In this document: positions 16,751-28,375 of the stretch, piece after piece
How the letters are laid out: every line of letters starts with the position of its first letter
Position numbering within the stretch: position 1 is the stretch's first letter
NCBI GenBank assembly: GCA_048940925.1
Contig: JBHLOC010000029.1
Location: 33,299 to 62,425, forward strand
Source: Promethearchaeota archaeon
GTDB lineage: Archaea > Asgardarchaeota > Lokiarchaeia > Sigyniarchaeales > SOKP01
DNA length: 29,127 bases
Direction: 5' to 3'
Program-made: the position numbers and the translations under genes
Notes under the pieces: generated by a model
Seen by the model: only the letters and a program-made list of their open reading frames with translations
What the model was told of the DNA's origin: nothing
Database searches by the model: none

Positions 16751-16843
16751 GGCCCTTGACGGTTAGAGTGGTCTCTGACGCTGGGCTTCAAACCCAGTTA
16801 TCCTGCGGAGGGATAGGGGTTCGATTCCCCTCAAGGGCCGCCA
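16751..16843 (+). tRNA. selC: tRNA-Sec (anticodon UCA), 9/4 fold, CCA encoded
   Basis: Acceptor GGCCCTTGA/TCAAGGGCC (9 bp), G73, CCA; D stem GTTAGAG/CTCTGAC (7 bp, loop TGGT); anticodon stem GCTGGG/CCCAGT with loop CTTCAAA; variable arm TATCCT/GGGATA; T stem GGGG/CCCC with loop TTCGATT. Confidence 0.96.
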
Positions 16844-17282: not shown

Positions 17283-18650
17283 ATGGTTAATTTTAATAAG
17301 CTAAATGAGTTTTTACACAAAACCTCTATTCCTCAAAATATGTTAGATCGAGGACATATTGTGCTTAATAATTTTATGAAACCCTTAAAAATTCTGTTTG
17401 AACAAAAGAGCGTTCCAAAAGAATCTTGGAGTGATGAGCAAATTGAATATCTCCTAAGGACTCTTTCCAGTATGGATACGGATAAAGATAGTAAAGCAGC
17501 AAGAGTAGGAGAAAGAGAGGCAAGAATAGCATCAAAACTACATTTACAAACTTCTGCAGGATTTTGTCATGGAGTAGGAAGAAGTGGATTTCTAACAGCG
17601 CCCCAACCTAAAGCTCCTGGGGGATCAATCATGTATGAAATCTCTAATTATTTAGCGCGTGATATATTAAGGAATTTTGGATTACCAAATATAAGAAAAG
17701 CAATTGTAGTCCCATTATGTACCGGGATGTCTTTATCCTTAACATTAGGTGCTTTAAGACCTGATGGAGAGGATAAACATTTAAATAGTAAAAGAACTGT
17801 ATTGGTTCCTCAAATTGACCATAAATCTTTGTTAAAATCGATAGACTTAATGGGATTTAAAACTAAAATTGTAAAAGGCAAAATTTTTGGAGATTCTGTA
17901 AGGATTCCAACTGAGGATATAGAAAATAATATTGATGATGATTGTTATGCAATTGTCTCTATCACAAGTTTTTTTCCACCTAGAGAACCTGATAATATAA
18001 AGGAAATAAGCAAATTAGCACAGGAAAAAAACCTTAAACACATAGTCATCAATGCATATGGAGTTCAAAGTCCTGAGTGGATGAAATTAATTCGTTCTGC
18101 AATAGATACTGGGAGAGTTGATGCAATAATTCAATCAACTGATAAAAATTTTCTCACTCCTGTTGGAGGAGCATTGATTGCTTCTCCTATTAAAGAAAAT
18201 ATAACTAAGATCAGCCAAACTTATGCTGGAAGAGCATCAGCGACCCCAATTGTTAATTTTTTAATATCTATGCTCTCTTTAGGAGTTAATGGTTATCAAA
18301 AATTAATCGAAGAACAACAACAAAATAGAAAATTACTTGAAGAAAAATTATCAATTGTAGGGAATAATATAAATGAGAGAGTATTAGAAATTTATAATCC
18401 TGTTGCAGTGGCTTTATCTCTTGAAAATTTAAAAGAAGAAAATTTATTTGCAATTGGGGGGGCATTATATAATCTAAGAGTTACTGGACCTCGAGTATAT
18501 AATCCAAAAGAAAATGCATTTGGTACATGTTGTGAGAATTATCATACTCCATATATAGTAATGAATGCTGCGATAGGCTCAAAAACAAAAGATATTATAT
18601 CTGCTGTAGAAAGATTTGAAAAAGCTTATTTACAAATCACTCAAAAGTAA
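17283..18650 (+). CDS. spcS: O-phosphoseryl-tRNA(Sec) selenium transferase (SepSecS)
   Basis: MDTDKD...VGEREARI...FCHGVGRSG.L.APQPKAPG.S...TGMS...DHKS...FFPPR.PD...NAYGVQ...GRVDA.IQSTDKNF.TPVGG...YAGRAS. Confidence 0.96.
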   Translation: MVNFNKLNEFLHKTSIPQNMLDRGHIVLNNFMKPLKILFEQKSVPKESWSDEQIEYLLRTLSSMDTDKDSKAARVGEREARIASKLHLQTSAGFCHGVGRSGFLTAPQPKAPGGSIMYEISNYLARDILRNFGLPNIRKAIVVPLCTGMSLSLTLGALRPDGEDKHLNSKRTVLVPQIDHKSLLKSIDLMGFKTKIVKGKIFGDSVRIPTEDIENNIDDDCYAIVSITSFFPPREPDNIKEISKLAQEKNLKHIVINAYGVQSPEWMKLIRSAIDTGRVDAIIQSTDKNFLTPVGGALIASPIKENITKISQTYAGRASATPIVNFLISMLSLGVNGYQKLIEEQQQNRKLLEEKLSIVGNNINERVLEIYNPVAVALSLENLKEENLFAIGGALYNLRVTGPRVYNPKENAFGTCCENYHTPYIVMNAAIGSKTKDIISAVERFEKAYLQITQK

Positions 18651-18771: not shown

Positions 18772-19452
18772 ATGGAGAACCGACTTTTAGATCAGTTTAA
18801 TAATGTAATTTCATCTCAATGGCAATTCAAGCAAATAGAAGAACAATATGAACCTTTAATCCCTCGAGATTTATTTGAATTAGCCTATCATACATGTAAC
18901 AGTATAGCTATGAGAAATATTTATATAAAACAGTCTGCTGATGAGAATCAAGGTGGTTCTAAGGCTATATTATATTCAAATACTAAAAAGTTTATTTCAA
19001 TAGAAGCCCTAGACTCTTCTTTAAAAATAACTAAATACTTTAGTGAAGGAAGTACAGGAGATAAGTTGATCTCTGAAACACAACCAATCTTTAAAGAAAG
19101 AAAAAAAAAATTTGCGGCTAAAGAATCAGATATTAAAACACAGATATTAAAATGTATTTTGGTTGAGAGAAAACTTGATGAATGTGTCAATTTAGTAATG
19201 TTAAAAGGAAACAATAGAAAAATATATTTTGCCATAGGTGATGCGAGAGAGTCGGCCGCTGTAGTTCCTATGTTCATGGAGGCTGAAGGGGCAAGTTTAG
19301 TACAATTAGCATTAAATAAATGGATGGAAGCAGCTCAAAGGTTGGATCATGAACAAAACTTTCCTGAAAATCTTATTCCCGGTATTCTTAAAAACTTAAC
19401 CCAAATTAAAAGATGGCTTCTTGATTTAATTAGTACTAACTTAGATAAATGA
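18772..19452 (+). CDS. Hypothetical protein
   Basis: 226-aa ORF with protein-like composition; no family recognised. Confidence 0.75.
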   Translation: MENRLLDQFNNVISSQWQFKQIEEQYEPLIPRDLFELAYHTCNSIAMRNIYIKQSADENQGGSKAILYSNTKKFISIEALDSSLKITKYFSEGSTGDKLISETQPIFKERKKKFAAKESDIKTQILKCILVERKLDECVNLVMLKGNNRKIYFAIGDARESAAVVPMFMEAEGASLVQLALNKWMEAAQRLDHEQNFPENLIPGILKNLTQIKRWLLDLISTNLDK

Positions 19453-19601
19453 TATGAATCTCATTTATTTTTAAAAAAAAATATTGTAGCTCAAAGTATT
19501 AACTTGAGTTAACTTTTAGAATATTCACAGATATATATCTAAACACGTGAAATAGATGTTTCACGAACTATATATTATAGATATGAAATAAAAATAAAAG
19601 A

Positions 19602-19787
19602 TGGGCCATCGGGGATTCGAACCCCGGATTTACCCGCTAAAAGGATAACACCTTTTAACTCTCAGGTTTTCATTGATAACGGACACAAATTTGTTCATTT
19701 ATCTTGTATGTCCGATGGTCATTTATAAGACCTGCGCTTGTTGACCAAGCATATAAAACCTTGTTAACCAGGCTGAGCTAATGGCCC
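19602..19787 (-). tRNA. tRNA-Ile (anticodon UAU) with three predicted introns
   Basis: Acceptor GGGCCAT/ATGGCCC plus A73; T arm CGGGG-TTCGAAT-CCCCG; anticodon stem CAGGT/ACCTG with loop CT-TAT-AA. Removing 19764-19740, 19722-19668 and about 19660-19630 gives a 75-nt cloverleaf. Confidence 0.82.
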
Positions 19788-20013
19788 TTGATATTTGTAT
19801 TTTGTATCTCTTCTGCCGAAATGCATATTTTCAATATAAATTTTTATTTATAACCCATTTCAATGCTAAAATATCTTGACTATAATTATAATCTAATAAA
19901 ATCAGAAAAAAGATAAAAATTTTTTTATGTTTGAAATATGTTATATTTATAATTGAATTTAAATTAACAAAAAACTAGTATATTTTCTATTGATATTTTG
20001 AGCGTGAATTGAC

Positions 20014-20427
20014 ATGGCTGAAATGTTAACAGACCTCCTACAAAATATCTATAAAAGAATCGCTCAATTAGGAGGATCCATTCAGGAGCTAAGTAACTCT
20101 CTCAATTCCTTAAATAAAAATATAGAGGAAAAAATAACAAATTTGAGTTCAAAATTAGAGGAATTTTCTACTGAGATTAATCTGACACAAACTAAACATA
20201 TTGATGCTGTTAAAGAGATAGGCGATATAACAACCAAGGAATTGAAAGTAGTACAAGAAGGATTAGGTTTAGATGCATTGAAGCTATTAATTAAGAAACT
20301 TGAGGATATAGTCAAGCTCTCTGAAAGTGTACTTAATCAAGATACAGTTAATTTACTTTTATCAGAAGCTATTGATTCTGTAAAGAAATTAAAAGAATCT
20401 ATTAAAGAAGAAGAGGTATTAGAGTAA
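20014..20427 (+). CDS. Coiled-coil protein (paralog A)
   Basis: All-helical heptad pattern; N-terminus resembles the next ORF. Confidence 0.75.
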   Translation: MAEMLTDLLQNIYKRIAQLGGSIQELSNSLNSLNKNIEEKITNLSSKLEEFSTEINLTQTKHIDAVKEIGDITTKELKVVQEGLGLDALKLLIKKLEDIVKLSESVLNQDTVNLLLSEAIDSVKKLKESIKEEEVLE

Positions 20428-28274: not shown

Positions 28275-28375
28275 GCAGACATAGCCTAGCCTGGTACGGC
28301 GCTGGCTTGGAGCGGAGATACTCCCAGAAAGCCAGTGTGTGAATGCACTCGAGGGTTCAAATCCCTCTGTCTGCG
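28275..28375 (+). tRNA. tRNA-Ser (GGA) with a 17-nt canonical 37/38 intron (28313-28329)
   Basis: Acceptor GCAGACA/TGTCTGC plus G73; anticodon stem CTGGC/GCCAG, anticodon GGA at 28309-28311; BHB helix TTGG/CCAG; long variable arm; T arm GAGGG-TTCAAAT-CCCTC. Confidence 0.93.

Follow-up and report, generated by a model that had tools for sequence, protein, structure and literature searches.

The window analyzed here is a 29,127-nt stretch of a Promethearchaeota archaeon contig. On its minus strand, in the intergenic gap between an ORF ending at position 19452 and the next ORF starting at 20014, the parts of a tRNA are dispersed over 186 nt (19602..19787). This locus raises the question of whether so fragmented an arrangement is a functional tRNA gene, how its interruptions could be removed, and which codon the product would read. 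The initial annotation had proposed that the 186-nt gene is reduced to a 75-nt cloverleaf when three inserts are taken out, and the coordinates and motifs bear this out: the gene consists of four exons and three introns, and ARAGORN identified the 75-mer as tRNA-Ile(TAT). The gene opens with a 7-nt acceptor strand and closes with a perfect T arm, followed by the acceptor strand's complement and the discriminator base A73, with no encoded CCA. Exon 1 (19765..19787, minus strand; nt 1–21) contains the 5′ strands of the acceptor and D stems and the D loop. Exon 2 (19723..19739; nt 22–38) contains the D-stem 3′ strand AAGC, G26, the 5′ strand of the anticodon stem and the loop CTTATAA, in which the anticodon TAT (UAU, 19725..19727) reads AUA. 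Exon 3 is the 7-nt micro-exon ACCTGAG (19661..19667; nt 39–45), which supplies the 3′ strand of the anticodon stem and two nucleotides of the variable loop. Exon 4 (19602..19629; nt 46–73) contains the end of the variable loop, the T arm, the acceptor 3′ strand and A73. A T-rich run directly 3′ of the discriminator base (19585..19601, minus strand), read from the sequence, is likely a transcription stop. The arms of the 75-mer are 7/4/5/5 bp long, and its D stem, GCTC/AAGC, is composed of 3 bp and one C–A mismatch (C13–A22); most relatives have a perfect GCTT/AAGC stem. A 7-nt anticodon loop, U33, a purine at position 37 and a class I tRNA body agree with a UAU isoleucine tRNA, and the loop CTTATAA was invariant in 42 aligned homologues. 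The predicted isoleucine identity itself is read from the anticodon and A73 only.

Standard software did not recognize this gene. The Rfam tRNA model gave no match to it, and ARAGORN run without introns missed it. In its single-intron mode, ARAGORN found the same two ends, forced a single 89-nt intron between them and miscalled the product as Ser. When positions 19400–20000 were searched against Rfam at a permissive threshold, only T-arm fragments and chance matches were obtained, with no tRNA, H/ACA or C/D family among them; the T arm in exon 4 was the sole portion of the gene that these weak matches caught. Annotation pipelines would therefore list the lineage as being without an AUA reader. 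The assembly (4.8 Mb in 90 contigs, approximately 30% G+C, scored as 100% complete with 8% contamination) contains a single copy of the gene, which, at 186 nt, exceeded in length every other tRNA-like gene that ARAGORN or a scan for T-arm/acceptor sequences detected there. Over the whole genome, the Rfam tRNA model detected only 30 tRNA genes; 22 of the 34 tRNA calls made by ARAGORN needed an intron, and several of the calls were plainly wrong. The T-arm/acceptor scan gave 35 plausible tRNA genes, about 24 of which exceeded 100 nt. Multiple introns conceal a good part of the tRNA set of this genome.

Searches by DNA similarity and by synteny yielded 83 distinct homologues of the gene; they belong to the same GTDB family, apart from a few that come from outside it. 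A subset alignment of 42 homologues was used for the counts of helix pairing and covariation. Across the 83 homologues, identity to the window gene was 90% in the exon columns and 59% in the intron-2 columns; by exon, it was 85% for exon 1, 98.6% for exon 2 and 92% for exon 3. The anticodon stem assembled from exons 2 and 3 was paired in 100% of the cells of the 42-homologue alignment, with a compensatory change at 28:42. Conservation of the exons and BHB motifs among relatives, which had been set as a check on the gene, was thus found in the exons (90%) and in the helices of introns 1 and 2, which were kept, and the micro-exon ACCTGAG stands as first described, at 19667–19661 and with its columns conserved. 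Judged by these comparisons, 19787–19602 is a genuine three-intron tRNA-Ile(UAU) gene, the similarity being far beyond chance.

The comparison also revealed a locus that is polymorphic for introns. Five intron positions were observed (two in the D loop and one each in the anticodon, variable and T loops), with a maximum of four introns per gene. The architecture of the window gene (D loop 21/22, anticodon loop, variable loop) was common to 13 distinct sequences, and four more added a T-loop intron to it. Homologues with four introns (L016:1454-1670, L061:5299-5510, L006:1501-1708) were 206–217 nt long. Relatives carrying both D-loop introns had a 6-nt exon, TGGTTA, between them, so that the 7-nt micro-exon is not unique. 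The presence or absence of introns varied even inside one genus, and the locus can be considered a natural experiment in which intron presence and absence fix the splice junctions without RNA data. A BLAST search of the three introns against the genome found no paralogous copies (the best other match was 15 nt, E 0.07), and there was therefore no sign of an intron family copying itself through this genome. A metagenome scan for the spliced exon 2–exon 3 junction gave one match, which was a different gene and not a cDNA. This match (L136:1731-1806, metagenome contig Ga0209040_10016177) is a compact tRNA-Ile(UAU) gene of another organism, which has no intron and whose acceptor stem is unrelated.

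In the host genome, ATA accounts for 36 per 1000 codons and for 35% of the isoleucine codons in long ORFs. A search for TiaS_FLD (PF08489, the only TiaS domain searched) found none in this genome or in 40 others of the order, and four of four archaeal controls were positive. Since no TiaS was found and AUA is frequent, the tRNA-Ile(UAU) gene is probably essential. Considering also that the gene is single-copy, its product is probably the sole AUA decoder of the cell and under strong selection, which fits the conservation of the exons. Like eukaryotes, the order seems to decode AUA by means of a UAU tRNA. In archaea, a UAU tRNA-Ile has been deemed rare, with 2 of 167 genomes reported to have one (PMC6000648).

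To locate the splice sites, each boundary was scored by the published motif definition, which calls for a central helix of 4 bp, bulges of 3 nt and helices on either side. Intron 1 (19740..19764, minus strand; 25 nt) lies in the D loop at 21/22 and belongs to motif class HBh′ (H 4/4, h′ 4 bp), with the central helix TGGT/GTCA, the bulges TA|A and AC|A and the inner stem CAAG/CTTG. Of the 60 genes that carry this intron, 56 had a central helix with 4/4 pairs, and the variants GTCA, GCCA and ATCA all pair. Thirteen distinct genes without intron 1 read TGGTTAAAGCGC across the site, which matches the predicted exon 1–exon 2 junction exactly. The D-loop intron, with its helix and bulges, was thereby recovered as originally described. 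Thermodynamic folding gave the intron 1 motif zero probability, and the same model misfolded the mature tRNA.

Intron 2 (19668..19722, minus strand; 55 nt) interrupts the anticodon loop, with the central helix TTAT/ATGA and the inner stem CGGACATA/TGTGTCCG. It was present in 83 of 83 homologues and absent from none, so that there was no intron-less junction to compare. In the window gene, its motif has H 4/4 and an h′ of 3 bp and falls into class HBh′ at 38/39; the h′ was only 1 bp in about half of the homologues. The hairpin is 7–8 bp long, with compensatory changes at six of the seven inner pairs among the 42 homologues. Of 25 genomes of the same family, 24 were found to contain the element by a covariance model of the anticodon arm and intron 2, which detected it in none of approximately 125 other genomes of the phylum. 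Its strict filters missed a sister-family homologue; that gene (L159; G187:C301, ~560-690) was recovered by a later DNA search. Because the model missed it, the intron 2 element may well occur beyond the family in spite of this count.

Intron 3 (19630..19660, minus strand; 31 nt) lies in the variable loop at 45/46 and forms a 9-bp hairpin with a relaxed motif. In the strict register, the window gene makes just two of four central pairs, and the strict BHB structure was not found there; either ACCT/GGGT or CCTG/CGGG can form, each with one 4-nt bulge. In 48 distinct relatives without intron 3, including species of the same genus, CCNGAG is immediately followed by AKC, as expected at the predicted exon 3–exon 4 junction. 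From these relatives, the expected variable loop is AGATC, with the cut in the window gene uncertain by 1 nt. The proposal of a variable-loop intron of about 31 nt, with a relaxed bulge and a boundary in doubt by 1 nt, agreed with these findings in each of its parts. The comparisons show how the gene is built, where the exons join across introns 1 and 3 and in which register the helix of intron 2 lies, and splicing would be expected to proceed as predicted, with the exact cuts falling in the proposed bulges.

Several other readings of the locus were weighed against this one. A pseudogene in decay, or an artefact of assembly, could be argued from the failure of the Rfam tRNA model to see the gene, from the C13–A22 mismatch in the D stem and from the contamination of the assembly; against this, dozens of independent assemblies contain the locus next to SepSecS, its exons are conserved and its changes are compensatory, and neither another AUA decoder nor TiaS was found, although AUA is frequent. 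This possibility is hardly credible. A second reading holds that insert 3 is not spliced and that the mature tRNA retains it as an extended variable arm, in keeping with its site in the variable region, its stable 9-bp hairpin and the lack of a strict splicing motif in the window gene. The 45/46 site, however, holds at least three unrelated insert sequences across the 83 genes. Five relatives have a strict CCTG/CAGG helix of 4 bp there, with the 3-nt bulges AG|A and AA|A, and nearly all of the others keep, a few nt ahead of the junction, an AGG or GGG that can pair with the exon CCU. Complementarity of the 3′ end to the exon CCU(G) is thus shared by inserts with unrelated hairpins; a variable arm could do without it, and it would compete with the anticodon stem. 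Moreover, close relatives within the genus lack the insert altogether. Given the perfect helix in these five relatives and the AGG/GGG kept opposite CCU, we consider insert 3 to be spliced and its retention to be very improbable. A further alternative concerns intron 2, which might be cut at the canonical 37/38 by an enzyme measuring from the anticodon stem, the helix register being misleading. In the window gene, a run of A residues makes cuts from 36/37 to 39/40 yield the same product, and the 38/39 motif is not strict, with U31 and C32 unpaired opposite the 3′ bulge and the outer helix not adjacent to the central helix. In addition, the sister-family gene L159 has a lone anticodon-loop intron with a perfect canonical 37/38 motif and a 5-bp outer helix. 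On the other side, nt 33–36 (TTAT) are paired with ATGA, ATAA, GTAA or GTAG in 42 of 42 homologues, whereas the 37/38 register gives only two of four pairs in the window gene, and in controls with slid partners pairing dropped to 33–42% vs 100% for the central helix. In three homologues without the A-run (L074, L075 and L089), the loop CTTATAA is invariant only under 38/39; a 37/38 cut would leave them with a variable nt 38 (C or T). A 37/38 cut in the window family is thus unlikely, and placement of intron 2 at 38/39 rather than 37/38, as initially claimed, is supported by the helix register. Since the L159 homologue is canonical and its intron has the hairpin-plus-ACA layout of intron 2 in the window family, intron 2 is, as far as the homologues tell, a one-nucleotide slip from an ancestral canonical 37/38 intron and not an intron at an exotic site. 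The statement that all three introns lie at non-canonical positions accordingly stood for the 38/39 register of intron 2 and lost force in that this register is a one-nucleotide slip of a canonical intron.

Several considerations bear on the order in which the introns are removed. Exon 3 (nt 39–45) can pair either with nt 27–31, forming the anticodon stem that frames intron 2, or with the 3′ end of intron 3, and the two pairings are mutually exclusive, as the initial annotation had claimed when it gave exon 3 two competing partners. One conformer therefore cannot present both splice sites, and the three introns may be spliced in a fixed order. The conflict is generic to introns at 45/46 and not specific to this gene, because all of them need nt 40–43 for the central helix. 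Thermodynamic folding was applied to the precursor and to all partly spliced forms and was used as a hint only; the model is a poor judge, because even the mature tRNA did not come out as a cloverleaf. For the full precursor, it predicted pairing of exon 3 with intron 3 and a GGTC/GACC hairpin occupying nt 29–32, with the anticodon stem at P 0.28 and the ACCT/GGGT helix also at P 0.28. After loss of intron 2, the anticodon stem reached P 0.93 vs 0.001 for the intron 3 helix. Removal of intron 3 before intron 2 is favored by this modelled result, because the anticodon stem wins once intron 2 is gone, and the folding weakly suggests that order. Alternatively, the precursor may flip between conformers with no fixed order, EndA taking whichever intron shows first. 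For this reading speak the appreciable probability of both conformers in the full precursor, the generic nature of the conflict at every 45/46 intron and the circumstance that it is the exclusivity of the exon 3 pairings, and only this, that has been demonstrated. Against it stand the collapse of the intron 3 helix after removal of intron 2 and the case of the three-intron tRNA-Ile(UAU) of Cyanidioschyzon merolae, in which anticodon-intron-first intermediates were undetected, implying an order (PMC9602550). We give splicing without a fixed order a little less than an even chance, and removal of intron 3 ahead of intron 2 is the order that the folding tentatively suggests.

The machinery for such splicing is encoded in the genome. 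Two EndA paralogues were found. The alpha protein (198 aa) most closely resembles the catalytic alpha subunit of the Aeropyrum pernix heterotetramer, with which it has a gap-free alignment across the N-terminal loop region, Lys-Pro-Arg included; the catalytic Tyr/His/Lys residues are retained. In the second paralogue (200 aa), the catalytic Tyr is replaced by Phe and the His by Thr, so that this protein is most likely the structural beta subunit. Asgard archaea are reported to have an (alpha-beta)2 EndA with an L1 loop that confers broad specificity (PMC5829648). The broad-specificity endonuclease that the initial annotation had called for is therefore present at the gene level, as a predicted alpha subunit with the loop region together with a beta paralogue. 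RtcB is also encoded in the genome. In the pathway that we propose, the single-copy tRNA-Ile(UAU) gene would be transcribed as a precursor of approximately 186 nt plus a leader; (alpha-beta)2 EndA would cut out the three protein-spliced introns and RtcB would join the exons; and the 75-nt tRNA would receive CCA post-transcriptionally and then read AUA. We regard this account as a whole, namely a functional UAU isoleucine tRNA gene from which EndA and RtcB would remove three introns and whose product would read AUA, as highly probable.

Two further elements of intron 2 are conserved. A near-invariant TGACC at its 5′ end (19717-19721, minus strand) is complementary to nt 29–32, and this complementarity was kept in 76 of 83 genes; in the 42-gene alignment, the departures from it were transitions to G–U only. 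An invariant ACA (19692-19694, minus strand), located 2 nt past the 5′ strand of the hairpin and 17–19 nt downstream of U34, was present in 81 of 83 genes and also in the sister-family homologue. Because intron 2 was never lost and has a covarying hairpin, the invariant ACA and the TGACC complementarity, it is possibly more than a passenger. Cbf5 is encoded in the genome. Conceivably, intron 2 and the anticodon region fold into an element that attracts Cbf5, a pseudouridine synthase with a PUA domain, or some other enzyme, by which U34/U36 would be modified or shielded ahead of splicing; this is a speculative idea that we hold to be improbable. If it were true, UAU would read AUA and not AUG, and this would be an archaeal counterpart of the intron-dependent pseudouridines 34/36 of tRNA-Ile(UAU) in eukaryotes. 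Two kinds of guide RNA were considered for intron 2 and rejected. An H/ACA guide was dismissed, as the ACA comes after the hairpin's 5′ strand, toward the loop, and does not lie 3′ of the lower stem; in addition, the alignment showed no conserved GA pairs in the loop, and no H/ACA family was returned at E values up to 10. A C/D-box guide, as in the euryarchaeal tRNA-Trp intron, was dismissed, as no RUGAUGA box was seen by eye and homologues with CCGGAG or CCCGAG show that the CUGA of exon 3 is not kept.

Among known systems, the closest are other Asgard archaea, in which multi-intron tRNA genes with D-arm introns missed by software have been published (PMC11291895; Goswami et al. 2026, bioRxiv 10.64898/2026.10.13.758758). 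The statement that multi-intron tRNAs are best known from Thermoproteales is therefore outdated, Asgard archaea being the published extreme (PMC11291895; bioRxiv 10.64898/2026.10.13.758758). Like the gene described here, the published Asgard genes have several BHB-type introns per gene (up to five reported), D-arm inserts that were missed, an (alpha-beta)2 EndA and introns whose presence or absence varies among relatives. The published studies center on Atabeyarchaeia and on Freyr-/Jordiarchaeia, whereas the present gene belongs to a Lokiarchaeia-type family; the terms “Loki”, “Prometh” and “Ile” are absent from the main text of bioRxiv 10.64898/2026.10.13.758758. Unlike the published cases, this locus has five alternative intron positions and an anticodon-loop intron that is never lost. 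Multi-intron Asgard tRNA genes are thus already known, and the gene is a new, well-supported example of them; a tRNA-Ile(UAU) locus that is polymorphic throughout a family, an apparent absence of TiaS and a never-lost, structured anticodon intron with an ACA were not found described in the literature searched. The Thermoproteales genes (Sugahara et al. 2007/2008) similarly contain two to three non-canonical introns, including ones in the D and variable loops, and are cut by a heterotetrameric EndA with a Crenarchaea-type loop. They belong to thermophiles of another phylum, for which intron families that copy between genes are described; BLAST found no paralogous intron copies in the present genome.

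Similarities to eukaryotic genes for the same tRNA are also evident. The nuclear tRNA-Ile(UAU) gene of C. merolae likewise has three introns, including those in the D arm and anticodon loop (Soma 2013, PMC3728597; Nagato 2022, PMC9602550), and there is evidence of an order in which the D and T introns precede the anticodon intron, with the introns linked to pseudouridylation (PMC9602550). It differs in being eukaryotic and in having its third intron in the T arm rather than in the variable loop, although some relatives of the window gene carry a T-loop intron. The yeast tRNA-Ile(UAU), as summarized in PMC9602550, likewise reads AUA with UAU and has a long, always present anticodon-loop intron, which pairs with the anticodon. 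Pseudouridines 34 and 36 depend on this yeast intron, which also keeps ncm5U34 from forming (PMC9602550). Yeast differs in that the enzyme is stand-alone Pus1 and in the block on ncm5U34. Korarchaeum cryptofilum and Nanoarchaeum equitans also use UAU instead of an agmatidine-modified CAU, and the Korarchaeum gene has an intron (PMC6000648). These genes are reported to contain one intron at most, in contrast to the three introns here, in a locus that is intron-polymorphic family-wide. The eukaryote-like combination of a UAU tRNA and a never-lost anticodon-loop intron bears on the translation traits of the archaeal ancestor of eukaryotes. The locus also displays the slip of a canonical intron by one nucleotide, from 37/38 to 38/39. 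It offers a clean, comparatively validated case of a tRNA gene that standard software overlooks or miscalls, although its product is probably the sole reader of a codon accounting for 3.6% of the total.

Other features of interest occur near the gene. A tRNA-Sec gene (16751-16843, plus strand; Rfam, 63.7 bits) lies just upstream of SepSecS (17283-18650, plus strand; Pfam, E 3e-115). This cluster of selenocysteine machinery is about 1 kb away from the tRNA-Ile gene, an arrangement shared by dozens of related MAGs. The SepSecS neighbor has up to 88% identity with proteins from Promethearchaeota/Promethearchaeia MAGs, including Loki_b31 and Loki_b32, which marks the organism as an Asgard archaeon of Lokiarchaeia type. 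A second interrupted tRNA gene of 101 nt is located at 28275-28375 (plus strand); it matched the Rfam tRNA model with 47.3 bits, and ARAGORN in single-intron mode called it Ser(GGA).
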